From assembly GCA_023249285.1 (NCBI GenBank), contig JAHFCZ010000005.1:1-35471 (forward strand): 35,471 nucleotides of DNA. The letters run 5' to 3'. The notes under the pieces were generated by a model. It did no database searches and had not been told where the DNA came from. It saw nothing but the letters and a program-made list of their open reading frames with translations. This stretch comes from a bacterium. Lineage in GTDB: Bacteria; Margulisbacteria; Marinamargulisbacteria; SXXA01; JAHFDB01. The translations under genes and the position numbers were made by a program. Positions 1 through 19,963 of the stretch are shown one piece after another (within the stretch, counting starts at the first letter, position 1; each line of letters starts with the position of its first letter).

Positions 1-1264
1 ATGCATAGAGATGCTGGTCTTCAAGGGGCTTTTGATCGATGCACAGCCGCCCGTCTTGCGGGACCAAAAGCCCCATCAGAATATCGGCTAGCGTGGACTT
101 CCCGGCCCCGGAATGTCCAACAATGGCCGTAGTGGTATTTTTGGGGATCTGGCAGGTGACATTGATCAAGGCGGTGGTTTCTTGGAAATGGAGGCTGACG
201 TTTTCCAAACTCACCATTGCTGAGAACTGGATCGGCTCTTGGCGCAATTCCTCGCAATGCTGACCAAATTCTCGGAGCATGTCTTGGGCCTCGGTATAGA
301 CGGGGACGATATTAAGGACGCGTAAATAACTCTGTTGCAGGCTAGACAACCTGGGCATTAATCGCGAAAAAATGATCAGCAAGGCCAGCATAGTCACCAT
401 GGGGATCTGCAAAAAGACAATCGAGACCCCAAAAAGAGCTGCAAAAATGACCGAGGATCCCACGCGGACTTGGAGACGAATCCGACCTTGATGACGCCCA
501 AAAATCACTTGATTTTCTTGGGCCTCTCGATTGATCGCTTCAAACTTGTCCATATAGGCCGCCACATGATTATAGCTTTTGGCGAGCTTGAGGCCATCTA
601 GAAACTGACTGAGCTGGACTTGAAGTGCCCGACCAATGTTGAAATTGAGTTTCCCCAGATGCAATGCTTGGTGTTTTCGGGTATACGAAAACAGGATCAG
701 AGCCGCCGCCCCCGCCATCAGGGTGAGTGGTGGGGAGAGGATGAGCGAGAACACGATATAGGCCGCAATCACAATGCATTCCGAGATCATTTGGAGGCAG
801 TAGGTGGTCAGTGCAGAAATTTGGCCCATCCCCGCACAAATCATGTGGTGGGCGTGTTCAATTTTTTGGCGAAGAAGGAATGACCATTTGGCCCTTGCGA
901 CACAGGTATTGAGGTCTTGTTGCAGTTTGAATAGGAAATTCTGGCGCAACTGGACCTGAAGGATGCCCTGCCCGTACTCAATGAGGCTCACCATGGCGGT
1001 CATGATGATAAAAGCCCCCAACGTGACAACCAGCGGGATTTGCGTATTTACGTGAGGCAAGAAGCTGACCACGCGTCCAATTAATCCCTGATTTTGACCT
1101 TGTGGAAGCCACCCGGCATAGTGCAGGAGCGGCACTAGGAGTAAGAGCCCTGCCCCCGCCAAGGTGGTGTTGAGGATCATCACCGCAACGCCAAGGTAAA
1201 ATTGGATGGGGTTAAACGCAATCAGCGCTTTTAAATAGATCCTGAAGTGGTGAAGCGGAGTCAT
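1..1264 (-). CDS. ABC exporter (TMD+NBD), lasso-cluster D-like; 3' end runs off the window
   Basis: Not in the ORF track; both ends translated by hand and in the same frame. Begins MTPLHHFRIYLKALIAF...AGAGLLLLVPLL (ATGA overlap with the upstream stop) and reaches Walker A TTAIVGHSGAGKSTLADILMGLL near 70-135. Confidence 0.9.
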   Translation of the reverse strand, partial: MTPLHHFRIYLKALIAFNPIQFYLGVAVMILNTTLAGAGLLLLVPLLHYAGWLPQGQNQGLIGRVVSFLPHVNTQIPLVVTLGAFIIMTAMVSLIEYGQGILQVQLRQNFLFKLQQDLNTCVARAKWSFLLRQKIEHAHHMICAGMGQISALTTYCLQMISECIVIAAYIVFSLILSPPLTLMAGAAALILFSYTRKHQALHLGKLNFNIGRALQVQLSQFLDGLKLAKSYNHVAAYMDKFEAINREAQENQVIFGRHQGRIRLQVRVGSSVIFAALFGVSIVFLQIPMVTMLALLIIFSRLMPRLSSLQQSYLRVLNIVPVYTEAQDMLREFGQHCEELRQEPIQFSAMVSLENVSLHFQETTALINVTCQIPKNTTTAIVGHSGAGKSTLADILMGLLVPQDGRLCIDQKPLEDQHLYA

Positions 1265-2847
1265 GTCCATTTTTGTAAGAGACTTACGCTCGCCACCCGC
1301 CAAAAACCCCAACGTGGGTTGGCCAGTCGGAGCGTAACCGCGCGTTCAGATTTCATCAACATTTTTTGGAGATATTCCCATTTTTGAGCCCAGGTTTTCA
1401 GGAGGAGTTGGTGGTAGAAAAAGTAGGTGTAGGCATGGGTATTGTGGTCCTCGTCAGGGTGGGTGGAATACCGCCTCCAAATGCGATTAATATGTCGGAC
1501 TCGGAACCGGATCCAAAGGGCGTCCCAAACTCCCACCCGTCGGGACAATTTTTGAGGTAAAATAGGCTTGATTTTTAAAAATTTTTCCAACATGTACTGT
1601 GCCTCCAGCACGCTTCGGGCAAGGTTTCTCTCCCGCATTAAGGCGTCGATTTTCTCCCAATCAAGTGGCACTTTCTGAACAAACTGGGCGATATCCACTA
1701 ACCAAGCGATGCGTTGCCAACAATGCTTTGCCCCATGGAAGCACAGATACAGAAAGTAAGCCTCCGGCTGGGGGATCGGGATTTCCTCGACCTGGGTGAA
1801 CGGTATTAAGGGGATTGGGTTGACTTCATGGACCTGGGAATGGAGCTCGATCACGTGGTGATGGTCGGGATGTACATAACTAAAATCGACGGTGGGGGGG
1901 AGCTTTTGGGCCGCCATCCTGCGATATATGTCGCTCTGTGGCTGATACCCGAGGCTCAGAAGTGCGTCGTGGGCCTCCCAAAAGTGGTCCTGGGCTACCA
2001 ACAGATCAATATCTCGGGAAAAGCGCCTGAAGACCTCGCCATATAACAAGGTGTTGAGCGGGGTCCCTTTGAGAAATACAACGGGGATTTGTCGGGCTTT
2101 GAAAGTGTCGCTGACCGTATGGGTTAAAGCCTTCAAGGCCAATGTTGCATAGACATTGCGGTCCCGTACCTGTTTGGCTTGTTGTGCGATGGGATGGCCC
2201 GCACCCAACTGTGCGATCACCGTATCCGTGAGTAGTAAATGGAGGCGATGCCGCGTCATAAGCGTCTGAAAACGTTGGGGACTCAGGGCCGCACACTGGC
2301 TGGCTGTGAGCGGCATCGGGGGATTCCCTGTCACCGCTGCGCGAATCCAATCCAAGAGGAGGGCCCATTCTTGATGGCGGGAGGGCCGAACTGCTTCCTT
2401 GGCATAGGTCCCAACCACACCGTAGGTCACATGCCGATGCAGGCCCACTGCCCAGCGCGGGCCGCAGCGTAGCCAGGCATGGGCTGCAAAAGACCCTGGG
2501 GGCTTATTTTGGCCTTCTGGGGTTTTTTCGGCGCGGATCATGCCTACGTACAGGGTGGTATCTAGGCCTCGTTTATTGAGCATGCTCTGGGCAGCCAACG
2601 CTTTGTCGAGACAGAGGCTTTTCCAAGGCACGCACCGACTCACAAAGGCAATCACCGATTGCACCAAGGCCACGTGATCTTGTTCGGTGTCTGTGAGGGG
2701 TGTTTTGAGGGTTTCAGCCTGTTCAATCCCCCACTTGGACCGCCATTTTGGAAAGGGAACCCAGACAATTAGAAAGCGCCACCACGCCAGCCAGAAGAGA
2801 CCCTCCAGACAAGGCCAGGCATAGCGCTTAATTTTTTTCGTCGGCAA
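1261..2847 (-). CDS. Fusion: lasso peptide B2 (transglutaminase-like leader peptidase) + NTP_transf_5-type nucleotidyltransferase
   Basis: N-terminal ~150 aa has VPWKSLCLDKALAAQSML and AAHAWLRCG (Cys/His of B2 peptidases). C-terminal part has VFLKG, RFSRDIDLLV, IELH and HGAKHCWQRIAWLVDI. Confidence 0.88.
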   Translation of the reverse strand: MPTKKIKRYAWPCLEGLFWLAWWRFLIVWVPFPKWRSKWGIEQAETLKTPLTDTEQDHVALVQSVIAFVSRCVPWKSLCLDKALAAQSMLNKRGLDTTLYVGMIRAEKTPEGQNKPPGSFAAHAWLRCGPRWAVGLHRHVTYGVVGTYAKEAVRPSRHQEWALLLDWIRAAVTGNPPMPLTASQCAALSPQRFQTLMTRHRLHLLLTDTVIAQLGAGHPIAQQAKQVRDRNVYATLALKALTHTVSDTFKARQIPVVFLKGTPLNTLLYGEVFRRFSRDIDLLVAQDHFWEAHDALLSLGYQPQSDIYRRMAAQKLPPTVDFSYVHPDHHHVIELHSQVHEVNPIPLIPFTQVEEIPIPQPEAYFLYLCFHGAKHCWQRIAWLVDIAQFVQKVPLDWEKIDALMRERNLARSVLEAQYMLEKFLKIKPILPQKLSRRVGVWDALWIRFRVRHINRIWRRYSTHPDEDHNTHAYTYFFYHQLLLKTWAQKWEYLQKMLMKSERAVTLRLANPRWGFWRVASVSLLQKWT

Positions 2848-3103
2848 CAGAGATGAGTTTATTTTCGGTCAACTGTAAAATAAAAGGGGCGATATCTTGG
2901 CTGCATTGCTCGGGCGTAATGTCATACACTGCAACTAGCTTTTCAACGAGGGCTTCTTGGGTGAGGGGCTGCTCTAAGAGTTCCCAAATTTTACGGGCGA
3001 CGGGATTGAGCCCAAAATAGCGCCCTTGGTCACTATCCATCATGACTAAATCGTCATCAATCTGGGTCCCAATGACGGTGGTATTACGTATAAAAGTAGG
3101 CAT
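2828..3103 (-). CDS. PqqD-family RiPP recognition element (lasso B1/RRE)
   Basis: IDDDLVMMDSDQGRYFGLNPVARKIWELLEQP...YDITPEQCSQDI...L pattern. Start moved to ATG 3103, which has GAGG upstream; ATG 3136 lies inside the predicted -10 box. Confidence 0.92.
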   Translation of the reverse strand: MPTFIRNTTVIGTQIDDDLVMMDSDQGRYFGLNPVARKIWELLEQPLTQEALVEKLVAVYDITPEQCSQDIAPFILQLTENKLISVADEKN

Positions 3104-3131
3104 AAAAGGCCCTCTGGGGGAATGATGGAAT

Positions 3132-3160
3132 ATCATAACTCATGGAGCCTAGGGTTTCAA
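3132..3160 (-). promoter_or_regulatory. Predicted sigma70 promoter for the RRE-B2/NTase-ABC module
   Basis: Minus strand reads TTGAAA (3160-3155), 17 nt, TATGAT (3137-3132) in the 82-nt intergenic gap. Confidence 0.6.
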
Positions 3161-3185
3161 CTTTCAGGTCATAATTCTGATCTTT

Positions 3186-4478
3186 CTATGGGGCTAGATC
3201 AGATATAACCTCACGGTAGGTGGGTTCCCAGCCTTCTAAAAGATGGTTATGCCATAAAAATACAAAAATACCCTTATATTTTTTAATCTTATTTTTATAC
3301 TTATGAAATGTTTTTCTGACCTCATTAGGACCCTGTTGTCGGTAGTTTATGAGCGTATGCTCCATTAGAACTAGGGGATATTCTAGCAACCGCAATGTTT
3401 TTTGAGTTACAACATTGAAGGGATGGAAGGCAACGCAAGTTCCACATCGAAATCCTTCACAATCTGCGTACCCCAAAGATGAGTCAATACTCATTCCAGA
3501 GTCTTCCCAAAGCTGCCAGGTGTCAGGTATTGAGAATCGCAGAAAATGTTGCCTACCCTCACGGATAGGTCCGCTCACTACATTTTGGAGTGCCGTAAGC
3601 TCAGCATTCCATAGAGAGGGTTGATTAAATGAATCAAAACTAGGATGGAATCCGATAATATGCCCGCGTTTTTGAATCTGACGGATAAGCGTTTTGAGAG
3701 AAGGATCTTGAATGTCAAAATAATAATCGTACTCATGGTGTCCACCGCTCATGAAATAAAAATGTGATTTCAAGCCATAACGTTCCGACTGGAGCATTAG
3801 AAAATCAAAATAATTGGGTGAAAAAATCCTTTGTATTGCTTGCCGAAGGCGACGGCGCTTGATGATATCTCCGACGCACTTGCGGAATCGAGAGCGAAAT
3901 CCAAAACCAACAAAGGGGACATCTACATCATGGGTGACCATCACTTGATAAGATTGGTCTTTTCGAGGATGAGTTATTCCCAGATGGACCAACATCGCCC
4001 AAAGCATTTCAGTATATTCATTCACAATAGGCCGATCCAAAAATCCTTTTTTGTAGGCCAAAGAAGCTGTAGCTGGAAATCGATTGAGATCATCACGGGT
4101 TGGCAAAACGGCTTCTTCCCATCGCGTCAGCATAAAAAAAACAGAAGCAACTAGATCTATCCCACAGTAAAGTCCCTCCTCCCGCCACTCCATTTTATCG
4201 TTACCATACAAAATAGGAATATCTTCCTCTGGAATAAAAGGGAGTTGAGCGAAAGATACCTCAGTAGGGATGGCTTTTGGCACCAAGTAGCCATTGGTAT
4301 TTTTTGAAAAAAAAACATCTGGGAAAATAAGGGTCTTTCCGTTTTCTAAAAGGAGGTGATAGGCATCCTCCAGGTGATAAGAAAGCGAAAATTCGACTCC
4401 CAAAAAATCAGTTAAAAGAGTACGCCAAACGTAGACTTTTTCAGGCGAAAATAGTGGATTTATACAAAGCGTAATCAC
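3186..4478 (-). CDS. Polysaccharide deacetylase-like protein
   Basis: VTHDVD, IGFHPS, GRQHFLRF, DSSLGY, GFRCGT and FLWHN motifs, with N-terminal FFMLTRWEE...RPIVNEY. GTG 4478 overlaps the GT2 stop (track start 4496). Confidence 0.8.
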   Translation of the reverse strand: MITLCINPLFSPEKVYVWRTLLTDFLGVEFSLSYHLEDAYHLLLENGKTLIFPDVFFSKNTNGYLVPKAIPTEVSFAQLPFIPEEDIPILYGNDKMEWREEGLYCGIDLVASVFFMLTRWEEAVLPTRDDLNRFPATASLAYKKGFLDRPIVNEYTEMLWAMLVHLGITHPRKDQSYQVMVTHDVDVPFVGFGFRSRFRKCVGDIIKRRRLRQAIQRIFSPNYFDFLMLQSERYGLKSHFYFMSGGHHEYDYYFDIQDPSLKTLIRQIQKRGHIIGFHPSFDSFNQPSLWNAELTALQNVVSGPIREGRQHFLRFSIPDTWQLWEDSGMSIDSSLGYADCEGFRCGTCVAFHPFNVVTQKTLRLLEYPLVLMEHTLINYRQQGPNEVRKTFHKYKNKIKKYKGIFVFLWHNHLLEGWEPTYREVISDLAP

Positions 4479-5503
4479 GCGTACACTAGCGGCCACACTC
4501 GTCTTAAAAGGGGCTTAATCGTTTTCAGGAATTGTCGAATCGGAGCAAGATTAAGTACAATATAAAGTATTTTGGCTAGCCAAAGTGGAAGATTGGCAAT
4601 GGGGTAGATATACCCCCAATAGAGACATTTTTTTTGGCCGAAAAGACGCCTTAGTCGGGCTTGCAAAAAAGAATTCATTTTAAAGCCAGATACTTTATGC
4701 AGCAGCGTCTGGGCCAGGAAATTTTTCAAGTATCCCCGAGTCATTGTTTGGAGTAATGCAACGGGAACCACTGTTGTCGCATCCTGAGCGCAAATAGAAT
4801 AGACATCCAAAGAACCGCTAAAAATCTCAAAAAGCATTTGACCACTGCAGTTCTTCCAAGAATCATCGGGAATACGACAGACAATATAGTTAGGGTTGGC
4901 AACCACATAGGCATTTCCTTCAGAGAAATTCCGAAGCCAGATCCCAACCTGCACATAATGAGATCCTAGAAAATCCTCAATAGGGGTTTGCGTGAAATAA
5001 CGCCGCCGCATCACTGTGGCCGGCAAAAAGCTAGGTGCCCGATCAAGTACAGAGAAGTAGTCTGCCGCCGTATTAAAATAAAAGTCTTCTTGCAGAGACA
5101 GCTGTGGTGGCGCGATTTCTTGAGAAAGATCCCCATTTAAATGCTGGTAATTAAAATAGATGAAATTAGTTTTAGGGAATTGATTTAAAATATCAAAGAA
5201 TTTTTGGAAGGTCCCGGGTCTGAAGATGTCATCTTGGCCACTGAGCCAAATATACTCCCCTTGAGCATGGACTGTTGATTGGACAAAATTACGATCCATT
5301 CCGAGATTTTTTTTGTTTTGATATGCATGGATAAAGGGGTGCCGAGCCGCATACTCTTGCGCGATTGCAAAGGTAGTATCCTTGGATCGGTCATCGCACA
5401 AAATAATTTCAATGTCAGGTCTCATTTGAGAGACTAAGCTGTCTAAAAACTCAGGCAAAAATGAGGCTCCGTTATAAATCGGAACACATATAGAAAGTTT
5501 CAT
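4475..5503 (-). CDS. Family 2 glycosyltransferase
   Basis: LSICVPIYNG, EIILCDDRSKD, NLGMDRNF, GEYIWLSGQDD. Confidence 0.92.
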   Translation of the reverse strand: MKLSICVPIYNGASFLPEFLDSLVSQMRPDIEIILCDDRSKDTTFAIAQEYAARHPFIHAYQNKKNLGMDRNFVQSTVHAQGEYIWLSGQDDIFRPGTFQKFFDILNQFPKTNFIYFNYQHLNGDLSQEIAPPQLSLQEDFYFNTAADYFSVLDRAPSFLPATVMRRRYFTQTPIEDFLGSHYVQVGIWLRNFSEGNAYVVANPNYIVCRIPDDSWKNCSGQMLFEIFSGSLDVYSICAQDATTVVPVALLQTMTRGYLKNFLAQTLLHKVSGFKMNSFLQARLRRLFGQKKCLYWGYIYPIANLPLWLAKILYIVLNLAPIRQFLKTIKPLLRRVWPLVYA

Positions 5504-7314
5504 GAGGCTATCCTTTTTTCAAAATTAAGCTGATGGATCAATTTAAACCAGTCATTCTTTTTCAGAAGTTCCTCGTAAGTTCCGCTGGCTGCAATATGAC
5601 CAGCCTCCATCAGAAACAACTTATCGCAGTGTTTCACGGTACTCAATCGATGGGCAATGATCACAAGGGTTTTGGATCGACCCAATTCCACAATAGCCTC
5701 TGATACCGCGGATTCTGTTTCGGCATCCAATGCACTCGTTGCTTCATCAAACACCAAGACTTCAGGATTGTGATACAACGCCCTTGCAATGCCAATTCTT
5801 TGGCGTTGCCCACCGGATAATTTGACCCCTTTGTCTCCCACCACCGTCTCAATGCCTTGCGGAAGTTTTTGAATCCACGAAGACAGCTGTGCGGCCTGAA
5901 GAACCTCCTGTATCCGAGAGGATGAAATGTGATCTTCAGGGATTCCAAACGCAATATTTTTCTCAATTGTATCATCCAGCAGGTAGATAGACTGAGGAAC
6001 ATAGCCGATCAATTGATGCCAGGCCGGGAGGTTGTCTTGAATAGAGACTCCATCAACATAAATCCCCCCCCGCTGAGGATTGAGCACCCCTAACAGCACA
6101 TCTATCAAGGTTGTTTTTCCTGCCCCAGAACTACCCACAATCCCAACGGTACTAGATTTGGCAATCTCAAAAGAGAGCTCGTGAAGGGCATATTCATCTC
6201 GAGAAGGGTACATAAAGGAAAGATCGGCAACCTTAATTTGAGTAGAAAATGTGAGGGGAGCTAGTAGAGGGGGAGGGGGCGTACTCTCAGCGTAAGTGCT
6301 CATTTCTGTGAACAAGGTTTCTAGAGAAATGAGTGTCATCCGCATTTGAGTCACGCCAGCTGTCATCGTGTTCACTAAAGGAAGGACTCTGATCAAAGAT
6401 AAAATATATAAACTGAGCGTAGGCAAGATCAGCTCAAGGTGACCCCCTGAGAGCATAAATGTCGAGATAAAAGCTGCGAATGCAATCACAAAAAATAATT
6501 CTAGCCCTAATTTTGGAATTAATTGATATTCTTGTAACGTCACCGCAATCCGTCGATACCGGTCTGCAATGGTGTTAAATCGCGAGAGGAAAAAAGCGCG
6601 ACGCTCTAGGATCACGACTTCTTTAAAGGCGCCTAAACTCTCCTGAATACATTTATACATATCCACCAGAATTCTATCTTGCTCCTGACCGATTGCATGC
6701 GCCTTTTTCTTAGTAGCCGCTAAGTAAAGCGTCACAAAAATAGAAATCCCGAGGGAAATACTTAAAGTGGCCACAAGATTGTTAAATAACAGGAGTCCAA
6801 AAATGAAAGAAAAAAGAAAAAAACTTGAGATCACGCCCAGTAAATTTTGCAAGAATATCAACACAAAATTATTAATTTGCCCCGTGCACTGGTGGATCAA
6901 AAAAGCGGTGTTTCTCTCCATAAAATGCTCGTAAGGCATCCCCAAATATAGTTTGAGTAAGCGCATTCCCAATGCACCCCGAAGCGTATGAAGGACAGAC
7001 GCCTGAAACTTTTGAGTAAAAAATAAGATCACATTTTTGATTAAGAATACCCCCACCACCATAGCGCTCATGCCGACTACTGCCTGGGCCTGGGTATGGA
7101 TATGAGCAATATGAGAGAGCCAGATCAAGGCAGAATAGCGGGTCATAAAATGAGGATCCAGCACAACACCAAGAAGCGGAAAAATAATGCCGATGCCCAG
7201 CATTTCAAGAAAAGAAGTCCCCACAATAAGTGCAGTTAAAAGGGCTATTTTAAATCGATTTCCTCTCCCCAAGATGAAGCTCAGTTTGAGAAAGAGATGA
7301 CGTATACGAATCAT
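5500..7314 (-). CDS. ABC transporter ATP-binding/permease, PglK/HetA-like glycan flippase
   Basis: Hydrophobic N-terminal half, Walker A GSSGAGKT, LSGGQRQRIGIARALY, DEATSALD, IAHRLST; glycan-locus context. Confidence 0.9.
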   Translation of the reverse strand: MIRIRHLFLKLSFILGRGNRFKIALLTALIVGTSFLEMLGIGIIFPLLGVVLDPHFMTRYSALIWLSHIAHIHTQAQAVVGMSAMVVGVFLIKNVILFFTQKFQASVLHTLRGALGMRLLKLYLGMPYEHFMERNTAFLIHQCTGQINNFVLIFLQNLLGVISSFFLFSFIFGLLLFNNLVATLSISLGISIFVTLYLAATKKKAHAIGQEQDRILVDMYKCIQESLGAFKEVVILERRAFFLSRFNTIADRYRRIAVTLQEYQLIPKLGLELFFVIAFAAFISTFMLSGGHLELILPTLSLYILSLIRVLPLVNTMTAGVTQMRMTLISLETLFTEMSTYAESTPPPPLLAPLTFSTQIKVADLSFMYPSRDEYALHELSFEIAKSSTVGIVGSSGAGKTTLIDVLLGVLNPQRGGIYVDGVSIQDNLPAWHQLIGYVPQSIYLLDDTIEKNIAFGIPEDHISSSRIQEVLQAAQLSSWIQKLPQGIETVVGDKGVKLSGGQRQRIGIARALYHNPEVLVFDEATSALDAETESAVSEAIVELGRSKTLVIIAHRLSTVKHCDKLFLMEAGHIAASGTYEELLKKNDWFKLIHQLNFEKRIAS

Positions 7315-8069
7315 AAAATTGAGGGTGTCCCAGGGAGAGAAAAAAGTTGTCGATTAAGCTTGATGCATTTTTCTAGAACATAGCGACTATTGACGAAAAC
7401 CGATACAAGAAAGATCAAGAGCGTAATCCGAGTAGAATAAGATCCAAAGGCCGCAGGGATTAACAGAAAAACGGTATGCCCATGGATCAAAAAAATACAG
7501 GGCATGATCCATTGTTTGAATTTTTTTAGAGGCGATAGTGGCGCGGTTGGAGCCGCACTAGGTGTGGGGGTGTCAAGCTCAGGGAATTTGGAGAATAACT
7601 GCAGCTCCAATGTAGTTGATTTTTCGCTTAAAACAGCGTAAAAAAGAAAAAAAGTTGAAGATAAAAATGCTAGAATTTGAATATCAATGCTCGGGTATTT
7701 AATACTAATAGCTAGAAAAAACAACAATAACTTAATGTGATCGGTCATATGATCGTAAAAAGCCCCGTTTGGCGTAGATTGATGGGTCAGACGCGCGATC
7801 ATGCCATCACACATATCGCAAGACAGTGCCAAACTCCAAAATACAGCAAAGATCCAGGGGGAAACAGGTAACAACAAAAAGAATAGTCCGACGAGTGCTA
7901 AAAAATTGGAGAGGGTAGTCGCTTGATTGGGGGTTATTTTGAGCCGCATTAAAAGGTGCATCAACGGGATGCTTAAAATATAGAGAGCTCGCATCATTGG
8001 GATCTGATGGGTGAAGTGATTAAATACCGAAAAATAGGTAGAAAAACGGTGGCGTAAAGAAGCTAGCAT
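7311..8069 (-). CDS. CDP-alcohol phosphotransferase family membrane protein
   Basis: Full signature DxxDGxxAR(x8)GxxxDxxxD = DMCDGMIARLTHQSTPNGAFYDHMTD, with ITPNQAT upstream. Confidence 0.9.
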   Translation of the reverse strand: MLASLRHRFSTYFSVFNHFTHQIPMMRALYILSIPLMHLLMRLKITPNQATTLSNFLALVGLFFLLLPVSPWIFAVFWSLALSCDMCDGMIARLTHQSTPNGAFYDHMTDHIKLLLFFLAISIKYPSIDIQILAFLSSTFFLFYAVLSEKSTTLELQLFSKFPELDTPTPSAAPTAPLSPLKKFKQWIMPCIFLIHGHTVFLLIPAAFGSYSTRITLLIFLVSVFVNSRYVLEKCIKLNRQLFSLPGTPSIL

Positions 8070-9181
8070 GCGGTTCTCAACACCTCAAACAACGTGTCCA
8101 TTGGCACTATCCCATTCTTGATTCGGTTGTTTTGAAACACAGACCTGCATAACTCGGGGAAATCATCCTGAGGGAGATAGGTCCATAATAAATGAGATAC
8201 GCCGATGGTATCAAAAAATGCTTTGATTTTCTCCGATGGATTTTGCCCAAATATTTCGTTTAAAGCGGCATCCACAGGTTCCGAAATGCCCTGTGCAACG
8301 TAAGCGATATGTGGAAGTGAAAAACTGCAAGCAATCCCGTGTGCAACCCCATATTTTGCGGTTAAATAATACGAAATGGCATGAGCAACCGCGGTTTGTG
8401 TGTTAGAAAATGCAAGCCCCGCGTATACGGTTGCAAGCATCATCTGATCCCGACACTGTTGATTATCTAGATCGGAAAGGAGGTCCGGCAAAGTAGCCAG
8501 TATTAGTTTAGCACCTTGAATTGCAAAAGCTGTTGAGATGGGATTTGCTTGAATATTCCAGATAGATTCTAAGCAATGAGACAGCGCATCAAGACCCGTT
8601 TGGAGGGTCAATTGGCGTGGAAGAGAGTGTGTTAATTCAGGATCATAAATACACGCTTCTGGCCATAAATCAGGTAAATGGAGTGAAAATTTCTGTTTGA
8701 GGTCCATGTCCCATATCGTCGCCCAAGGCGTTAACTCACTCGAAGTTCCTGCCGTGGTTGGCACGCAGATCAATGGGGTGGTGGTATAATGCAAGTGTGA
8801 TATTTCCCCCAAGATATATTGGGAAATCAGTGAGAAATGAGGTGCATCTACCGAGAACACCTTCGCGCTATCCATCACACTCCCCCCCCCAATGGCTAAA
8901 ATAACGTCAAATTGCGAGCGATCCAAACGGGTATAAATGGCGGCCATTTGCGACAACGTAGGATTAGGTGAAATATCAGAGACCACGGCTACTGGCCATA
9001 TGGCGGCTGCATTTAATTTATCAACCAATCCTCGCTCAACAAAGCCAGCTGAAGTTATGATAAGCACACGCCGGCCCCTAACCCATTCAGCTAAGCGTTG
9101 AAAATACCCTCGTCCAAAATAAATCTGCACTGGAATTTGATAAGAAAAATTAGTGACCGAAGAGTTGTTGCGCACGCTCAT
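8063..9181 (-). CDS. Iron-containing alcohol dehydrogenase, probable phosphonoacetaldehyde reductase
   Basis: AIGGGSVMDSAK, VPTTAGTSSE, GLDALSHCLES, AHAISY, HGIAC. Start probably ATG 9181 rather than 9379. Specific function inferred from adjacency to pepM/ppd. Confidence 0.85.
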   Translation of the reverse strand: MSVRNNSSVTNFSYQIPVQIYFGRGYFQRLAEWVRGRRVLIITSAGFVERGLVDKLNAAAIWPVAVVSDISPNPTLSQMAAIYTRLDRSQFDVILAIGGGSVMDSAKVFSVDAPHFSLISQYILGEISHLHYTTTPLICVPTTAGTSSELTPWATIWDMDLKQKFSLHLPDLWPEACIYDPELTHSLPRQLTLQTGLDALSHCLESIWNIQANPISTAFAIQGAKLILATLPDLLSDLDNQQCRDQMMLATVYAGLAFSNTQTAVAHAISYYLTAKYGVAHGIACSFSLPHIAYVAQGISEPVDAALNEIFGQNPSEKIKAFFDTIGVSHLLWTYLPQDDFPELCRSVFQNNRIKNGIVPMDTLFEVLRTAC

Positions 9182-9857
9182 AATCCTTAAGAAAATCGAT
9201 TTCAACCCATCGAGCACCGTTAGTAGAGATACAATAGATTTTCGAATAAGCGGCAAGTTTTGTAAAGGCATCCGTATCGTAATACATGAGGCTATCATTG
9301 CTGAGGGTCGTTTCAATGACCGAAAACAAGCGGACAGGGTCTCGACAGCAAGCAATGCCGATCCATTCCCCGTCAGCATGGGCCACTTCTTTACTGGACT
9401 CGATCAAAAAATGGCCCTTCGTTTTGACCTTCATCGCTTCAGCATCCGTAGGTCCAAAGTCCGTTGTCAACACCAGGTCATCTTGTCCTGTATCAAAATG
9501 AGCTAAAGTTTCCTCTAAAATAACCGAGTCATAAATAATATCCCCGTGGAGATAGATGAAAGAATCAGATCCTACAAAATCTCTCGCAACCCAAAGTGAA
9601 CCCATATTGTTACAGTGGGAAAAGAAAGGATTGGGAAGGTAAGTAATTTGATCCCCCAAAGCTGCTTTGATTAAGTCCTGTTTATACCCTGTAACAATAG
9701 CAATCTGGGAAATACCTTGCTGGCGAAGCAAGGTAATTGAGCGGGCCAATAGGGTTGTTCCGGCAATTGGCAAGAGTCCCTTCGGCTGGGTAAGGGTCAA
9801 GGGGTAAAGCCGGCTTGAAAGTCCAGCTGCTACAATAACCGCTTTTTTAATCGACAT
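9150..9857 (-). CDS. LicC/PntC-like (phosphocholine/phosphonate) cytidylyltransferase
   Basis: KAVIVAAGLSSRLYPLT..PKGLL, NNMGSL, HGDIIY, WVEIDFLKDYERA. Confidence 0.82.
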   Translation of the reverse strand: MSIKKAVIVAAGLSSRLYPLTLTQPKGLLPIAGTTLLARSITLLRQQGISQIAIVTGYKQDLIKAALGDQITYLPNPFFSHCNNMGSLWVARDFVGSDSFIYLHGDIIYDSVILEETLAHFDTGQDDLVLTTDFGPTDAEAMKVKTKGHFLIESSKEVAHADGEWIGIACCRDPVRLFSVIETTLSNDSLMYYDTDAFTKLAAYSKIYCISTNGARWVEIDFLKDYERAQQLFGH

Positions 9858-10983
9858 GGGTCAAAAATCTACAAAGTCGCTCTTTAACTTGATAAGGCTT
9901 ACTCTTGGGGCGACCTAGGGTGGAGATAGAGCCCTTGGCAATTTTTAGAACCAAACAGGTCAGCTGTGGAAAGCTAAACCACTGCAGAATTTCATCAGTA
10001 AGCGCTTCCAGTGTAGAGACTCCCACACAACGGGGATAGCCAACAGCCGCTCCAATCTGGGTGAAATTTACATTATGAGATACCGTAAACTGCCCACCCG
10101 TCGAATCATGTGTATTATTATCCAGCACTATATGGAGTAAATTTGGGGGATGGTAGGCCGCATTTGTTGCCATCACACCCAAGCGCATTAACAAGGCGCC
10201 ATCCCCATCAATAGTAATGACTTGGCACGTGGGCTTGCTCATCGCAATGCCCATTCCGACTGCACTCACACAGCCCATCGAGCCTACCATATACAAATGC
10301 TGTTCAGAATCTTCTATCGTATAAAGTTCCCGCCCGGTCTTCCCCGTGGTGGCTACGATCACGGTAGACTTGGTTTTAAGCTGATTAATACATGTTAGAG
10401 AGTCATACCTGGTGGGGAACGCATCCGGAGCTGATGAGTGAAAAATAGTCGTTGAGAGTGCTTGAGGCAGGGATTGGGCTTGCAAGGTGGTTTTTAAAAA
10501 GGTGTCCTTTTTTACGACGAAAAAGAAGGGTGTATTTTGATCCAAAACTGCACACGCCCGGTCCAATTGATCCGCAATTTCTTCCATAGACAGGGATAGA
10601 AACTCCCATTTAACCTGCATTAAATCCAGCATTTGAGGGGTAATCTGGCCCATCAGTTCATGCTGGGGCTCATCCGAAATTCCTGGCTCCCCGCGAAAAC
10701 TCACGAATCCTAAAACGGGGATTCGAAAATTATAATTTAAAGAAGTAAGCGGGGAGACGGCATTTGTAAGTCCTGAGTTTTGCATCAAGACCACCGTTTT
10801 TTTGCCCCCAATGTGAGCGCCTGCTGCCAAGGCAACCGCATCCCCCTCGTTAGTCGCCATAACATACATCCCATTATTGAGTGTGTCATTAATCAATGGC
10901 TCAAGGTGAGAACAGGGAACTCCCGTAAAAAAATTAAACCCACGCTCCCGTAATGCTATCCCAAAAAGCGCTGTATCAATCAT
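9847..10983 (-). CDS. aepY: Phosphonopyruvate decarboxylase
   Basis: [53 protein letters not shown], ThDP motif DGDGALLM...[11 protein letters not shown]. Confidence 0.95.
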
Positions 10984-12584
10984 GCAAGATTGCCTGCGAG
11001 CTGGAGATCCATAATGGTATCAATATCCATCCATCCACCCTTCACATATCGAACAGCAACGGGGGAATGGGGGATGATTTCCATTAATAAATCTTGCATG
11101 CGAAGACGTGAAAAATCTGGACGCCGGGACAGCTCCTCCAGAACCATTGATACAATTTCAGCTCCCTTGGGAGAGAGTTTCCACAAGCCGATAAATTCAC
11201 CACAGTAGCCCATCGCGGGGAATTGGTGGGTAACCTGAATTAATTCTGCGCTACCCAAGAAAAAGTTTTTGGAATTTTCACGCGAGGCGACCACGTAATC
11301 AGCATACCCTGATTTCTGACCGCTATCCGAGTCGACGACAATCGTAATATCATTTTGATCAATTAAGAGTTCGTGCAAAATATAGGGCTTAAAGACAATA
11401 TCTCCATAGCTAATTAACGTATCAGAAGTGATTCGTTTTTTAGCTAAAAATAATGAGGCGACTTCTTGAGTCGTAGAAAAGTCATCATTGTCGAGAGTAG
11501 AGATATTAGGAAGTCTAATTTTGTCTTTAGCAAAGCCCCGCACGACAGTAATCATTTTGATGCCGGCCTGATTCATTTCCTGAATTTGGGTTTCTAAGAT
11601 TGATTTGCCATGAATTTGTAAAAGCGTTTTTGGAATATCAGTCGTCAACGTGCCCAATTCTTTACCCTGAGAGGCGGCTAAAATTAAAGCCTGAATTTGT
11701 TTGCCAGAAGTGGGGAGGTATCGTTTTTCAGCATCTTTAAGTTCATCGGCGCTTTGGAGTCGAAATACTTCTGCCACACTGACGATTGTGCCCTCAACAT
11801 TGATCAGAGATTCGTCCTGAAAGATCGTCCTAGAGGTCTCTTGGATGGCTTTAATCGATGCACGAATATTATGATTAGCCCAAATAGCCACGCTAATCCC
11901 TTGCTGTCTGAAATAATCGGTCGGGGTGGAATAGTATTTGGTAGGCACAATGATAATTGGAATACGCTTATCCCACTGAGACATAAAAAGATCTATATCG
12001 CTGGGGTCAGATTTTTTACTATGGACTAATAAGGCATCTGCGCCTGCTTCAGCGTAGGCGTACGCACGTCGCAAAGCCTCATCAACACCCCATCCAGCGA
12101 TAAAGGCTTCGAGTCTAGCCACCACACAAAAATCAGCCTCTTTCTGATGGTCTTTAGCCGCTTTGATTTTTCCACAAAACTCATTCATATCGGCCAGAGG
12201 CTGAGATTCACCCAAAATAAACGAATTGGTTTTTGGGAATAGTTTGTCTTCCAAACATACCCCCGCCACACCACGTTGTTCAAGTTTGTGGATTAAACGA
12301 CGGACATTATTAAAATTGCCATACCCAGTATCTCCGTCCAGCAAAATCGGGATTGAGGTTGCGTCACACATAAATTCCACGACGTCCAAGACTTGAGTCC
12401 AAGAGGCTTCATTGTTGTCACGAACGCCCAAGGAGGCCGAAATAGAAAGTCCGCTGGCCCATATCCCTTTGAATCCAGATTCCTCCACAATTTTGGCAGA
12501 CAAGCCACTATGCGCTTCCATCAGGAACTCTAGTGAATCAGACGTAATCAAATGGCGAAGTTGCTTGGCCTTAGAAAGAGTCAT
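10980..12584 (-). CDS. aepX: Phosphoenolpyruvate mutase fused to a C-terminal NTP-transferase (PntC-like) domain
   Basis: PepM-diagnostic EDKxxxxxNS ([10 protein letters not shown]), [17 protein letters not shown]. After ~aa 295: [12 protein letters not shown]...IPKTLL...SYGDI...WMDID. Confidence 0.96.
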
Positions 12585-12593
12585 ATCAGAATT

Positions 12594-14414
12594 TTACCTT
12601 ATTTTTGGGCCGGGGGCCATGTTGACATCCAAGAATTTCAACAACAATTGGATCATTTTTTCTGGGGCTCCTAAGTTAGTCGACAAAAATATATGCCGTG
12701 CTCTCTGAACATCTGGCCTCTGCCACCAGGATAGAGGATCCTCTATAATGGATTCCAAAAATTGGGCTGCGCCCTTGGAATCCGTGTGACAAATCCCCAC
12801 TTTGATTAATTCATCATAGAAATCTATATATTCAGGAGCCAGTTGATATGCAGCTTTATCGAAAAAAAAGAGCATCGGAATATTCATCGCCAATGTTTCT
12901 AGGTAAGAGGTTGAGATATAGGTAGAAACAACTATTTTGCTTCGACACATCATTTTTTTACAAGATTGAGAGAAATCATCTTGTTTCAACCGGGACAGTG
13001 CCCCCCCTAAATAGCGGTCCAAGTCATACTTCATCCATCCTTGAGCACAATGGGGAGGATAGTCTCGATACAAGATCCTAGAAATCGTGTTGCTTGAAAG
13101 GGTCTCAAAAAAATCTTTATGAAACTGGATATGACGAATAGCATCCTCCCCATTTATTCCATACGACCCCGAATAGAAATCTCGCTTTACAAGTCCTGGG
13201 GCCCCAATAACGAGCACTTCGATATCTTGGGGAACATTTTCTTGAATTTCTAAGCCAAAAAGAGAAGCCCCACCCACAAGATTTTGGAATTTGGGGTCTG
13301 ACCATCCCATAGATACAAAAATATCCGATAATTTTGCAATAAGTGGATTATGGTTACCCAAGAATTGGTGAGAGAGGTAATTATGCTCGTTACAAATGTG
13401 AATGATACCGCGCTTCTGGGCAATTACAATTGCACAACTGATCTCAGAAGAAGTAATCCAGGCTTCGGATACTAGATGAGTTAAGGATGGGTAGTGGTCC
13501 CAATACTGGGAAAATATTTCTTCCATTTGCTCAAATGCTTCTAGCAACGTTATCGGCCATAAGTATTTCAACAACGCTCCCATAAATTGATCCATTCTAT
13601 CGCCTTTTGCTAATTCCGGAATTTCTCTCCAGACCATGTTTGGAGGAAGAAGTATTTCATACGGAGGGATAGTGATCGATTGAATTTTTCCCTTACTTTT
13701 CTCGCTTAATTCCATCAAATATTGGGAGTGAAAATAAGCATAAAACACACCCAATTTTGGAGCTGCAAATTTTTCATAATATTTCATGCGAAAGAACCCC
13801 ATGGAGAATTTTCTTCTCAGCTTTTGCAACCAAGTAGAAGAAGATTTTGGCGGAGGATCTAGCAGGGTTGGCGGTGGCTGTGTCGCCCAAAAGAGTGGCC
13901 AGCCAGCTTCAGGATAAAACTGCTCTATATAGATGCTCAAGAGTTGTTCCTGCCCGAGCTCATCGTGTTGAAGAAAACGAGTCGCTTCTTCCAAACTCTT
14001 GGGAATCACAAAAGCTTTTGGGTCTAATCGCTCGCCATACTGGTTTGCGATCTTGATATTTTCCTCAAAAATACAGAACGCCTCATAGGCAAGTGTCACC
14101 AATCGTTTAAAACTAAGACACATGCATTTTTGCCAAAAATGAACGGGATAATTTTTCCCTAAGGTATGATTAAGCCAGCGGGATAAAATTTCCACATACC
14201 GATTATATCGGGAATCTAGTTGATTCTGAAAATCAGCCAGATCTGATGGGGTTTGTCTTAAAAAATGAGCTACGCGAACCCGTTTCCCAAAGAATAAGTC
14301 CTTATCATGTAGGTAAGGCTCCAAAAGTAAAAACTCGGACCCGAATTTCGATCTAATCCCAGCCCTCATTGCCGAAGGGATGACTACCTCGCGTGGAGCA
14401 GTGGATCCGACCAT
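12594..14414 (-). CDS. Putative surface-glycan transferase, resembling the LIC12162 family
   Basis: 606-aa ORF with ICNEHN, FVSMGW, STYISTSYLETLAMNIPMLFF, LIKVGICH, WWQ; family resemblance is from recall and context only. Confidence 0.6.
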   Translation of the reverse strand: MVGSTAPREVVIPSAMRAGIRSKFGSEFLLLEPYLHDKDLFFGKRVRVAHFLRQTPSDLADFQNQLDSRYNRYVEILSRWLNHTLGKNYPVHFWQKCMCLSFKRLVTLAYEAFCIFEENIKIANQYGERLDPKAFVIPKSLEEATRFLQHDELGQEQLLSIYIEQFYPEAGWPLFWATQPPPTLLDPPPKSSSTWLQKLRRKFSMGFFRMKYYEKFAAPKLGVFYAYFHSQYLMELSEKSKGKIQSITIPPYEILLPPNMVWREIPELAKGDRMDQFMGALLKYLWPITLLEAFEQMEEIFSQYWDHYPSLTHLVSEAWITSSEISCAIVIAQKRGIIHICNEHNYLSHQFLGNHNPLIAKLSDIFVSMGWSDPKFQNLVGGASLFGLEIQENVPQDIEVLVIGAPGLVKRDFYSGSYGINGEDAIRHIQFHKDFFETLSSNTISRILYRDYPPHCAQGWMKYDLDRYLGGALSRLKQDDFSQSCKKMMCRSKIVVSTYISTSYLETLAMNIPMLFFFDKAAYQLAPEYIDFYDELIKVGICHTDSKGAAQFLESIIEDPLSWWQRPDVQRARHIFLSTNLGAPEKMIQLLLKFLDVNMAPGPKIR

Positions 14415-14416
14415 AG

Positions 14417-15400
14417 CTATGTCAATTTTCGAAAGGTGATGCGGATATGGTTGCTTAAGTGATTTTTATCCAGTGACGCTTGCAAGTAAGGGATCATCTC
14501 TTTCAAATTCTCATTATAATCGATTTTATCCTCGTACGATTTCATCGATAAATAATCCATGACATCCCATCCATAGTAATCAATGTTAACTACCTCAAAC
14601 CCACTTTTCTTTGCCAAAAATTCAGCAGATTTTGCATCAAAAAAGCCGAGGTGTTCAAATGGCAATAGCGTATTTTGCAGGCCTTCCTGGAGAAGAAAGG
14701 CAAGAGAATGGACGTGGGGGGTATACGCAACAATGTACCCTTTTGAATTTAATTTTTGATAGGCCTCTTGAAAAAATGCGATCGGATCAGCCAAGTGCTC
14801 CAATACATCAAACATAGTCATGACATCCGAGTGAAATGTAAGTTCTTCCAATCTCTTTTTCTCAACATTTAAGCCGTTGTTTTGGCACAGTTTTACCAGA
14901 AAGTCCGTCAATTCTATACCTAAAGCGTTGACTCCTGAGTCCTTTGCACATTGTATAAAATAACCGGGGCCACATCCAATATCTAATAACGTTGCTTTTG
15001 TCCAATCTATTGGAGCCATCTTTTGAACATATTTTAACCGTTCAGAACCAAATTTTTCTTTTCGATATGCGTAGGTTTCCAAGATTTCTCTCTTCAATGT
15101 TTCTTCATACAATGCATTGTCATACATCGCGATATTTTGATCATTTTCTATTGAAATGTTAGGAAAAACCAACCCACAATTATGACATTCATACAAGGGG
15201 TACCCCTTGTATTCTAAAAATAATTTAGATTCACTTTCTTTACACAAAATACATTTGACCTGATCACGACGTTTGACCAAGCTGATGCGTTGTGGCCACA
15301 TCTCCGCACGCTCTCTCAACATTTCTGCAAAAAAATTTTTGCTCCGCAATTTCGACGGATCAATTGAAAATAGAGTGTATCCTTGAAAAATATCTCTCAA
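14417..15400 (-). CDS. Class I SAM-dependent methyltransferase with N-terminal Zn-finger
   Basis: CILC...CHNC, LLDIGCGPGYF, MFDVLEHL, EHLGFF; TTG start with AAGG upstream. Confidence 0.9.
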   Translation of the reverse strand: MRDIFQGYTLFSIDPSKLRSKNFFAEMLRERAEMWPQRISLVKRRDQVKCILCKESESKLFLEYKGYPLYECHNCGLVFPNISIENDQNIAMYDNALYEETLKREILETYAYRKEKFGSERLKYVQKMAPIDWTKATLLDIGCGPGYFIQCAKDSGVNALGIELTDFLVKLCQNNGLNVEKKRLEELTFHSDVMTMFDVLEHLADPIAFFQEAYQKLNSKGYIVAYTPHVHSLAFLLQEGLQNTLLPFEHLGFFDAKSAEFLAKKSGFEVVNIDYYGWDVMDYLSMKSYEDKIDYNENLKEMIPYLQASLDKNHLSNHIRITFRKLT

Positions 15401-15413
15401 TCGCTGGACCTTT

Positions 15414-16262
15414 TTAGACAGACTTAGTTAATTTTTGAGCGGTAAATACCTCTTCGTAAAATTCACGAGGAGAAACCCCATGCTTGAAAGCGATTTCGGG
15501 AGCATAAAACGTGGGATTTGAGATGTCATGGTACATCCCAACAAGGCTAAATCGGGTTTCTTTTGAAGAATTCTGACCACTTCGATGAAATAGACGACTG
15601 CTAAAAATTAAAAGTTGCCCCAACTGCATTTCACAAGAAATCTGGGGGTATTTTTCCACTAGCCTGTCCTCGACGATAATCTGGGTGGCCCTTCCCGGTA
15701 TTTCATTCCACGACTGATCAGCAATCCCTTCTTTTTGGCTCCCGGGACAAACCTCTATGGTCCCGTTTTGGATCGTCGTGTTCCGGATGAGTGGAGCCCA
15801 GGTTTGCAAGAAATTACTTTTTGGTATGGTGTAAAATACCTCTTGGTGCCAGCCATAGGTCCGTCGGGTGTCAGAGGGCATATCAATTCGACACCTACAG
15901 GTGTAGGTGTATAGTGGATTACTGGACTCCTTTTCAAGCAAGCCATTGATCACATCGGAAGTTTCTTTCTTGGAAATGATTCTTAAAAATTCTGGGATCT
16001 GAGCCGTGGTGTCATAAATTTGTGCTACATATTTATGGTCAACTGATTCGATTTCAAATAATGTTTGATCAAAAATGGCCCCGAGTTCTTGAGGTACAGT
16101 TATCCTTTTTGCGGTTTCAGAATAGATACGCTCGACAGTAGATCGGATAATATCTGCATAAGCCAGGGTAAAATCGTTTAATTCTGTTTTTGAGTAAAAA
16201 TTATCGATGATGAGGTATCCATTTTTCTCAAAAAAGGATTTCTGATCCGAAGTAACTTGCAT
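15414..16262 (-). CDS. Phytanoyl-CoA dioxygenase (PhyH) family Fe(II)/2OG dioxygenase
   Basis: FFEKNGYLII, YGWHQE (HxE), WAPL, NGTIEVCPGSQ, LFHRSGQNSSKETR. ATG 16262 has GGAG upstream (track start 16277). Confidence 0.88.
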   Translation of the reverse strand: MQVTSDQKSFFEKNGYLIIDNFYSKTELNDFTLAYADIIRSTVERIYSETAKRITVPQELGAIFDQTLFEIESVDHKYVAQIYDTTAQIPEFLRIISKKETSDVINGLLEKESSNPLYTYTCRCRIDMPSDTRRTYGWHQEVFYTIPKSNFLQTWAPLIRNTTIQNGTIEVCPGSQKEGIADQSWNEIPGRATQIIVEDRLVEKYPQISCEMQLGQLLIFSSRLFHRSGQNSSKETRFSLVGMYHDISNPTFYAPEIAFKHGVSPREFYEEVFTAQKLTKSV

Positions 16263-16298
16263 AAGCACTCTCCACACATTTCCTGAAAGATACCCCTG

Positions 16299-19296: not shown

Positions 19297-19934
19297 CCAC
19301 CATTGCCATCATTGACTACGGAATAGGAAATATTCAAAGTATTGTCAATAGCCTAATAGCGGTAGGAGCTACCCCGATTGTTACCCGAGACTCCGCTGAC
19401 ATTTTAAGCGCTCAGGGCATCATCCTTCCGGGGGTTGGTGCTTTTGGAGAAGGGATGGCCAATTTAAGAAAATACCAGCTCATCCCCATTATTTTTGAAG
19501 CTGTTAGGAAAGAGAAGAGCATACTCGGTATTTGTCTGGGAATGCAGCTCCTTTTTCAAGAAAGCGAAGAATTCGGTCACCACCTCGGGCTTGGGCTTAT
19601 CGAAGGATGCGTCAAAAAATTACCGAGTCAGCCTGGAGAAAAGCTCCCCCATGTGAGCTGGAATCAACTCTATCCGCCCACTTCTGAGCGTTGGGCCCAT
19701 TCCATTTTTCAAGAATCCGTTCCCGGAATCGATATGTACTTTGTGCATAGCTTTGCCGCTTATCCTCACCATAAGGCGGATATTTTAAGTGAAACTCCGT
19801 ACGGGGATACATTTTTCTGTTCTTCTGTTCAACGGGGGACTATTTTGGGATGCCAATTTCATCCCGAAAAGAGTGGTCCTGCAGGATTGACAGTCCTTAG
19901 AAACTTTGTTCAGATAGTAACGCTCCGGAACTAA
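19293..19934 (+). CDS. HisH-like glutamine amidotransferase (WbuY/AglY-like)
   Basis: IIDYGIGN, LPGVGAF, GICLGMQ, YFVHS, QFHPEKS. Confidence 0.92.
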   Translation: MTTIAIIDYGIGNIQSIVNSLIAVGATPIVTRDSADILSAQGIILPGVGAFGEGMANLRKYQLIPIIFEAVRKEKSILGICLGMQLLFQESEEFGHHLGLGLIEGCVKKLPSQPGEKLPHVSWNQLYPPTSERWAHSIFQESVPGIDMYFVHSFAAYPHHKADILSETPYGDTFFCSSVQRGTILGCQFHPEKSGPAGLTVLRNFVQIVTLRN

Positions 19935-19963
19935 ATTTTCTATACTCAGAAAAGGAGAGAGAA

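Follow-up and report, generated by a model that had tools for sequence, protein, structure and literature searches.

A lasso-type leader-processing and export module, cut by a contig end, beside a phosphonate and nonulosonate glycan island in a Margulisbacteria-lineage genome

The window analysed here, 35,471 nucleotides long, is the whole of contig C133 of a metagenome-assembled genome (MAG) of the Margulisbacteria lineage. The MAG comprises 1.67 Mb in 168 contigs, is 85% complete with 2.45% contamination and has a G+C content (GC) of 50.0%. Position 1 of the window is the end of the contig. We conclude that bases 1–3136 probably hold the B1, B2::N and D genes of a lasso-peptide cluster of the paeninodin/pseudomycoidin type, broken by the assembly at position 1 and lying beside a separate surface-glycan island. 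As it stands the finding is an ordinary one: part of a cluster of familiar type, severed where the assembly breaks. The kind of cluster, the fusion of B2 to N and the polysaccharide neighbourhood are already known; the lineage and the phosphonate/nonulosonate neighbour are new. Window proteins were assigned to families using Pfam and NCBIfam, with scores in bits compared with the family cut-offs. The module consists of three genes.

2828–3136, minus strand: PqqD-type RRE (recognition element of RiPPs, ribosomally synthesized peptides with post-translational modifications), lasso B1; PF05402, 65.5 bits
1261–2847, minus strand: B2::N fusion in one open reading frame (ORF) of 528 residues, lasso B2 protease plus NTP_transf_5
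2–1312, minus strand: ATP-binding cassette (ABC) exporter of the lasso D type, N-terminal 437 residues only

The best NCBIfam family for B1 is lasso_PqqD_Bac (66 bits, under the cut-off of 80). Its first ATG is at 3136, an in-frame ATG at 3103 is the likelier start, and the protein is 50% identical to the B1 of genome G003, which belongs to the same family. (G, C and L numbers are our labels for genomes, contigs and loci, respectively.) In the fusion, the B2 domain (Transglut_core3; residues 13–135, approximately 2380–2847) scores 53 bits with PF13471 and 60 bits with NF033537, lasso_biosyn_B2 (cut-off 33), and the PsmN-type NTP_transf_5 domain (NT5; residues 190–424, approximately 1261–2373) scores 130 bits with PF14907. 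Cys79 and His123 of the B2 domain and Asp279 and Asp281 of the NT5 DxD motif are invariant across the ten fused sequences aligned, and Cys79 and His123 are invariant in a B2-only alignment as well. The exporter is truncated by the contig end straight after Walker A, so that only positions 3–51 of the ABC_tran profile are covered; its best match in the G003 genome is the exporter of the cluster there, with 40.5% identity over 417 residues.

The gene order is thus B1-B2-N-D, with NTP_transf_5 between B2 and the exporter. The three genes are identified as lasso-type leader-processing and export genes because both their domains and their order match the psm cluster, in which psmN lies between psmB2 and psmD; the sequence-only reading had made the same identification and the same comparison, and Pfam and NCBIfam agree with it. 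PsmN of Bacillus pseudomycoides DSM 12442 adds one to two hexoses to the phosphorylated C-terminal Ser, and its D134A/D136A variant is inactive (PMC6993621). A position between B2 and D is described for the nucleotidyltransferase gene of related clusters, with fusion to B2 'in several cases' (PMC8498205). Like psm, the window and its MAG have B1 and B2 split, with NTP_transf_5 coming after B2 and before D; they also share with it an exporter of the ABC type, a kinase resembling HprK, a candidate precursor that ends in Ser and the DxD motif that is needed for activity in psm (PMC6993621). They differ from it in that B2 and N form one polypeptide, the kinase apparently lies downstream of D, a cyclase was not found in the MAG and the host is a Margulisbacteria-lineage organism rather than a Bacillus.

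A protein search with the fusion returned 15 matches, all to the NTP_transf_5 part only; in an exhaustive search, nine of the 150 best hits covered both B2 and NTP_transf_5, at 22–27% identity. A tree of 40 NTP_transf_5 sequences placed the window domain in a 12-row clade with 98% support in the Shimodaira–Hasegawa-like approximate likelihood-ratio test. Its further members include enzymes from the lasso loci L080, L085, L087 and G003 and one from genome G007, where NT5 has a glycan context; the clade stands apart from the other fused proteins and from the radical-SAM-linked clade of the phylum. Because the window domain groups with unfused lasso-context enzymes and not with the other fused proteins, the B2–NT5 fusion probably arose more than once.

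Complete clusters are found in relatives. The genes of the compared loci (14 + 17 + 19) were largely labelled with a BLAST panel built from Pfam-checked proteins; few loci were counted, related genomes among them do not amount to independent cases and the glycan panel is limited. The fusion protein was matched in three of 60 relatives. In G003 the order is rfbB, rfbA, B1, B2, N, D, collinear with the window over 2–3095 only, and the rfbA stop overlaps B1 by 8 nt. After D come a YhcG nuclease gene, a kinase fragment, a sulfotransferase, a 48-residue WxxPxL peptide, a convergent 599-residue protein and a weak HprK-like gene, so that the remaining cluster genes lie within 9 kb. The 599-residue protein scores best with the lasso cyclase family, at 175 bits, which is under the cut-off. 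The YhcG/DUF1016 PD-(D/E)XK nuclease gene and the 170-residue kinase fragment occupy G003:C63 (L018) 13767–15673, between the exporter and the sulfotransferase; from its position, the nuclease insertion looks as though it broke one of two kinase genes. G011, of the same order, has B2, D and a cyclase-like gene. A scan of genome contigs with the B2-only alignment yielded the 14 loci with the closest B2 (31–43% identity, the G003 and G011 loci included). A cyclase-like gene accompanies B2 in 12 of these (all except L085 and L090), an HprK-like gene also in 12 (all except L081 and L086) and NT5 in seven. At L080 a cyclase and two precursors stand upstream, followed by B1-B2-N-D-K. The genome of L085 carries a cyclase-like gene on another contig.

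It had been remarked of the sequence that no precursor or cyclase was in view. This is true of the window, and the absence of the cyclase from it is best explained by the contig end cutting the cluster at position 1. The contig could not be extended: a metagenome scan with the fusion protein gave two distant loci only, and a motif scan for the remainder of the exporter at the other contig ends of the MAG found none. The start of C94, a tblastn lead for the exporter continuation, proved to encode an Opp/Dpp-type ATPase.

Of the cluster parts looked for elsewhere in the MAG, a kinase C-terminus and a candidate precursor were found, and a cyclase was not. The kinase is an HprK-like C-terminus of 115 residues at C72:13893–14240, its start lying beyond the contig end. 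A profile of 11 lasso-cluster kinases matches C72:13899–14240 with an E value of 7.5e-31, and the fragment is 27–41% identical to those kinases. Searching the MAG by tblastn with the single kinase, sulfotransferase and precursor of G003 had given no match; for the kinase this negative did not survive the profile search, so that the one for the sulfotransferase counts for little. Downstream of the kinase fragment are a HAD-like gene and then convergent NYN, dnaJ, dnaK and hrcA genes. The HAD/PNK3P-like gene (C72, L153, 13340–13903, minus strand, 187 residues) overlaps the kinase fragment at its stop. At L135 the homologue of this gene has an NT5 gene, an epimerase and an NTP transferase beside it, and on that ground its product may be a sugar-phosphate phosphatase of the cluster. 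C133 and C72 both end within genes of one cluster type, and their orientations fit the arrangement B1-B2::N-D-[gap of at least 1 kb]-K-HAD. The order B1-B2-N-D-K matches L080 and, with an insertion, G003. C72 would accordingly continue C133.

A lasso-leader regular expression applied to the MAG returned 28 ORFs. For ranking, a precursor profile was built from 13 of the 17 hits of the same expression in foreign loci; the other four (one at L081, two at L086 and one at L089) were dropped as long ORFs in which the motif lies well away from the start. Among 48,542 six-frame segments scored with this profile, a 38-residue ORF at C127:1454–1570 ranks first (E value 1.2e-5, 26.4 bits; the next is at 0.14). 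Its leader is of the WxxPxL type, with Trp at 6 and Pro at 9, and Thr stands at −2 of the predicted cut; the predicted core has 18 residues, with Asp at 9 and a C-terminal Ser. The ORF thereby shows every feature looked for in a precursor of the paeninodin/pseudomycoidin type: the WxxPx[LVI] leader, Thr at −2, Asp or Glu as acceptor at core position 7–9 and Ser at the C-terminus. It aligns with the precursors of the cyclase-bearing loci L080, L083 and L084. The ORF fills an intergenic gap and has GAAAGG 9–14 nt 5′ of its ATG. Just upstream of it, at C127 (L094) 1571–1625 on the minus strand, is a tandem direct repeat of approximately 23 nt, the second copy of which provides the putative ribosome-binding site and the start. 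A second hit of the expression, C72:10053–10160, is antisense inside dnaK and was rejected; the other 26 of the 28 hits have E values of 0.14 or worse or were not scored by the profile.

A predicted complex of B1 with the C127 peptide scored 0.48 against 0.02 for the best control and argues weakly for binding. The mark that it passed was reached by 58 of 80 solved complexes and two of 110 mismatched pairs, and among scores of 0.60 or below only seven of the 80 solved complexes passed, along with both mismatches. Contacts agreed between runs to at least 93%, with a partner predicted local distance difference test value of at least 57. The pass may reflect memory, because RRE–leader complexes have already been solved.

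Taken together, these parts would work as follows. The HprK-like kinase whose C-terminus lies on C72 would phosphorylate the C-terminal Ser of a short precursor, for which the 38-residue C127 ORF is the candidate. The PqqD protein would bind the WxxPxL leader, the B2 domain would cleave after the Thr(−2) site and an AsnB-like cyclase, absent from the assembly, would close the ring between residue 1 and the core Asp9. The NTP_transf_5 domain would add a sugar to the phosphate, as PsmN does, and the ABC pump would export the product. We infer both the existence of the cyclase and all of this chemistry. The bsf cluster of Bradymonas sediminis FA350 (PMC10368454), also from a Gram-negative host, comprises A, K, B1, B2, N, C and D; it differs in that the Bsf kinase acts on Ser3, the leader has Ile at −2 and N is unfused, whereas here Thr is at −2 and the Ser is C-terminal.

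Several findings weigh against this reconstruction. In psm and pade the C, A and K genes stand upstream of B1, where the window has a glycan operon. The join of C133 to C72 draws on a single circumstance, that both ends cut genes of one cluster type. The C127 candidate adjoins no lasso gene, its neighbours being an aminotransferase IV, a TatA-like ORF and an uncharacterised Pro-rich ORF that show no similarity to any compared locus, and the profile that ranks it was built from ORFs chosen by regular expression. (In favour of C127, its aminotransferase IV has its best match in a same-family genome at 46% identity; MurC is 58–66% identical with the same genomes.) A lasso cyclase was not found anywhere in the assembled 1.67 Mb using PF00733, NF033535, two single cyclases and an 11-cyclase profile. 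Moreover, at G143:C85 (L073 8186–14367) four radical SAM genes come after a 95-residue ORF, an HprK-like gene, B2 and PqqD, and one cyclase query found no cyclase-like gene in this genome (90% complete); on this gene content, B2 does not always imply a cyclase. The cyclase searches of the MAG returned only two AsnB genes, on C40 and C76, which were rejected as lasso cyclases: both pass TIGR01536, lie in the company of glycan genes and begin with MCG, so that the glutaminase nucleophile is intact.

The last of these points lead to the strongest competing explanation, which we nevertheless regard as unlikely: that the locus is a cyclase-less relative of lasso clusters, in which K, B1, B2::N and D yield a linear phosphorylated, perhaps glycosylated, peptide. 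Such a system would be an analogue of the clusters that make linear polyphosphorylated peptides (LPPs) in Bacillota, with B2 replacing the SpI peptidase. That no cyclase turned up although A, B1, B2, N, D and K were all found is what this explanation would predict; G143, with B2 paired to radical SAM enzymes, is in keeping with it, and LPP clusters with a kinase, an RRE, an NTP transferase plus a pump of the MsbA type and without a cyclase are described (PMC13381572). The MAG, however, is only 85% complete, and two contig ends break the cluster at the very place where a cyclase might be. Cyclase-like genes are present in the clusters of both same-family G003 and same-order G011, and the candidate core, with 18 residues and Asp at 9, aligns with precursors of the cyclase-carrying loci. 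The window NT5 also groups with unfused lasso-context enzymes and not with other fused proteins. The comparison with Bacilli points the same way. Their paeninodin-like (pade/pba) and LPP clusters share a kinase, an NTP transferase, an RRE and an MsbA-like pump with the present set (PMC13381572; PMC8498205). A leader Trp marks the paeninodin type and a Tyr the LPPs (PMC13381572); the C127 candidate has the Trp in its WxxP motif, and B2–nucleotidyltransferase fusions are also known alongside the paeninodin type. The LPP clusters use a SpI signal-peptidase-like leader peptidase and a YxxP leader, whereas the window has B2, its candidate leader has Trp and no Peptidase_S26 was found among the window ORFs.

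In the phylum at large NT5 mostly has other company. A fusion profile matched 24 of 146 genomes, with the B2 part matched in only four of these, and most NT5 genes have as neighbours PqqD, an ABC pump and an S26-like peptidase, besides two to four genes of the radical SAM/SPASM type. This set recurs in L061, L064, L065, L066, L068 and L070 (G116, G105, G106, G129, G140 and G144, respectively), the radical SAM/SPASM genes encoding approximately 370 residues and the S26-like peptidase 200. Pfam was run on L066 and L073 only, and the others were labelled by BLAST to those. The NT5 proteins of this set form a separate clade with 100% support. Both it and the LPP clusters have an S26-type peptidase, an RRE, a nucleotidyltransferase and a pump; radical SAM enzymes stand where LPP has a kinase. 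In the G143 set, a leader protease of the lasso type would act for a pathway of radical SAM enzymes.

The favoured reading, a broken paeninodin/pseudomycoidin-type cluster, treats the glycan island as a separate locus. The minus strand carries every gene between 16277 and 1, with ends that overlap or abut, and upstream of the module these form an eleven-gene phosphonate and glycan operon of low GC (3186–16277, minus strand; Pfam, NCBIfam). A divergent set of nonulosonic-acid genes follows in the same low-GC island.

15414–16277, minus strand: PhyH dioxygenase
14417–15400, minus strand: methyltransferase
12594–14414, minus strand: LIC12162-family transferase
10980–12584, minus strand: phosphoenolpyruvate (PEP) mutase fused to nucleotidyltransferase; TIGR02320, 385 bits, cut-off 320
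9847–10983, minus strand: phosphonopyruvate decarboxylase (Ppd); TIGR03297, 390 bits, cut-off 313
9150–9857, minus strand: NTP transferase
8063–9379, minus strand: phosphonate-type iron-dependent alcohol dehydrogenase (Fe-ADH); best family PsrA, 371 bits, below the cut-off of 424
7311–8069, minus strand: CDP-alcohol phosphatidyltransferase
5500–7314, minus strand: MsbA/PglK-like ABC protein
4475–5503, minus strand: GT2 glycosyltransferase
3186–4496, minus strand: DUF7033/VimE-like protein
16368–23932, plus strand: NeuB-like, NeuC-like, HisF/HisH-like, WbuX amidotransferase, CMP-sugar synthetase and Acyl_transf_3 proteins

Two enzymes of the PepM pathway, PEP mutase and phosphonopyruvate decarboxylase, both score above their equivalog cut-offs. 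The Fe-ADH, in an operon that showed no aminotransferase for making 2-aminoethylphosphonate, suggests a hydroxyethylphosphonate-type product. PepM-Ppd-Fe-ADH phosphonate pathways with nucleotidyl activation feed phosphonoglycans or phosphonolipids, and the window operon resembles them in its PEP mutase–nucleotidyltransferase fusion, Ppd, phosphonate-type Fe-ADH and CDP-alcohol transferase. In the divergent set NeuC_NnaA (406 bits, cut-off 236) and WbuX (344 bits, cut-off 203) pass, and NeuB (355 bits, cut-off 400) and PseF (148 bits, cut-off 206) fall short. The neuB, neuC and CMP-transferase genes that answer to the sialic acid link drawn from the sequence alone lie on the plus strand from 16368, just outside the 1–16262 segment to which the link had been assigned. 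The HisF/HisH-like genes and the WbuX amidotransferase lie at 18385–21181, and 21881–23932 encodes an Acyl_transf_3 protein with a C-terminal DUF1574-like part; HisF/HisH-like proteins together with WbuX suggest an acetamidino-modified sugar. The GC of the island (3186–23932) is 37–47%, in the lowest few percent of 3 kb genome windows. By composition and gene content this 20 kb island is most likely a separate, foreign surface-glycan locus that would make a phosphonate and a nonulosonic acid. At the far end of the window an ORF of 940 residues (32647–35469, minus strand), open at the contig end, matches no Pfam family at an E value of 0.001.

At the junction the module follows the stop at 3186 after 49 nt if B1 starts at 3136, or after 82 nt if it starts at 3103; the spacing of 82 nt given earlier, and the description of an RRE, a B2/nucleotidyltransferase and an ABC exporter behind a packed phosphonoglycan operon on the same strand, are thus confirmed from the likelier ATG. 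The step in GC falls here. The fusion has 53.8%, the exporter 51.1% and PqqD 45%, and the dcw genes to the right of the island have 50–57%; the module is therefore GC-richer (51–54% except for PqqD) than the glycan genes, as had been supposed. The promoter attributed to the module is present as a site, TTGAAA-17-TATGAT at 3160–3132 on the minus strand (10 of 12 matches), but one such site against 1.9 expected in shuffles is not above chance, and on its own it is no evidence. A scan of the operon–module junction found no terminator-like site. A hairpin with an 8 bp stem (3170–3215, minus strand) spans the DUF7033 stop codon and has no T tract after it. The 141 nt of the junction fold better than shuffles (z = −2.95).

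Four loci have glycan genes directly beside the module: the window, G003 with rfbBA, L085, where Wzc and Acyl_transf_3 genes stand directly upstream on the same strand (Pfam), and L089, with epimerase-like genes 2–6 kb from the cluster edge. In Bacilli, paeninodin-like and LPP clusters co-localize with capsular polysaccharide genes, without an explanation of function (Popov et al., 2026, PMC13381572). PqqD and nucleotidyltransferase genes beside polysaccharide loci are therefore not unprecedented, as the sequence-only reading had allowed, and the view that the adjacency is merely incidental was set aside after L085 and PMC13381572. The neighbour in the window would differ from that of the capsule-embedded clusters of Bacilli in making a phosphonate and a nonulosonic acid rather than a Bacillus-type capsule. 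Glycan-panel genes occur at three of the 14 closest-B2 loci, namely at three of the seven with NT5 and none of the seven without, and at two of 17 further gammaproteobacterial NT5 loci, 13 of which have RiPP partners. Glycan linkage is thus a recurrent but minority trait. The bearing on the sequence-only reading is double: in same-family G003 the rest of a lasso cluster does lie downstream, as in an ordinary cluster, and yet module homologues do recur beside glycan genes.

In genome G007 an NT5 of the lasso-associated clade lies on C16 (L020 10823–16593) between an epimerase and a UDP-glucose dehydrogenase gene, with abutting ends and 2 kb from a DUF7033/VimE-like gene 41% identical to that of the window. 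Neither B2 nor a cyclase was found in G007 (83% complete). From this context there is a hint that plain glycan operons, too, can employ enzymes of this family.

A functional link between island and module would take the form of a RiPP–glycan hybrid, in which NTP_transf_5 or the island transferases decorate the exported peptide with island donors, or the peptide acts in glycan assembly. We consider this improbable. The same strand, the gap of 49–82 nt and the lack of a terminator-like site favour it, as do the four of six members of the window NT5 clade with visible context that touch glycan genes (the window, G003, G007 and L085) and the concentration of glycan-panel genes at the closest-B2 loci that have NT5. 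Popov and coworkers suggest of the surrounding polysaccharide genes that they 'could contribute to peptide modification'; LppN, in their view, may depend on a partner or on a rare substrate that the cluster itself does not supply (PMC13381572). Set against this are the sharp GC step, the flanks of G003 and the window, which are not syntenic and carry different glycan genes, the predominance of RiPP partners over glycan genes at the 17 further loci and the lack of glycan-panel genes at L080 and L087. The numbers in its favour are subject to the limits of sample, independence and panel given above. The sequence-only reading had proposed that a peptide or protein may carry or anchor a phosphonylated or sialylated glycan; the analysis gave this no support.

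In a more specific version, to which we give an equally low probability, the fused B2::NTP_transf_5 protein would pass the cut, phosphorylated peptide to its own nucleotidyltransferase domain, which would use an island donor (a nucleoside diphosphate sugar, a CMP-nonulosonate or a nucleotide-activated hydroxyethylphosphonate). If so, the exported lasso or linear peptide would carry an unusual phosphodiester-linked glycan or phosphonate, and the repeated siting of such clusters at the margins of polysaccharide loci, in Bacilli, Gammaproteobacteria and MAGs of the Margulisbacteria lineage, would come from the use of shared donors or from a part played in assembling capsule or biofilm.

That the three genes are an orphan remnant of a decayed lasso cluster, with no product, is very improbable: the cyclase was not found, the module is patchy (three of 60 relatives) and the G003 cluster is itself decayed, with its nuclease gene and kinase fragment, but the ORFs are intact with the catalytic Cys/His and DxD kept, the kinase fragment and the exporter are cut by contig ends and not by stop codons, and a well formed precursor candidate exists.

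With bases 1–3136 read as part of a paeninodin/pseudomycoidin-type cluster, lasso clusters of the kinase/nucleotidyltransferase type are extended to a MAG of the Margulisbacteria lineage. Two non-Bacillota cases, one from this lineage and one from a gammaproteobacterial MAG, are added to the published and unexplained co-localization of lasso and polysaccharide genes. They raise the question of what PsmN and LppN enzymes transfer and why such peptides sit in capsule loci. Because the donors of the island, a phosphonate and a nonulosonic acid, would be distinctive by mass and by 31P nuclear magnetic resonance, the locus is a candidate test case for that question.

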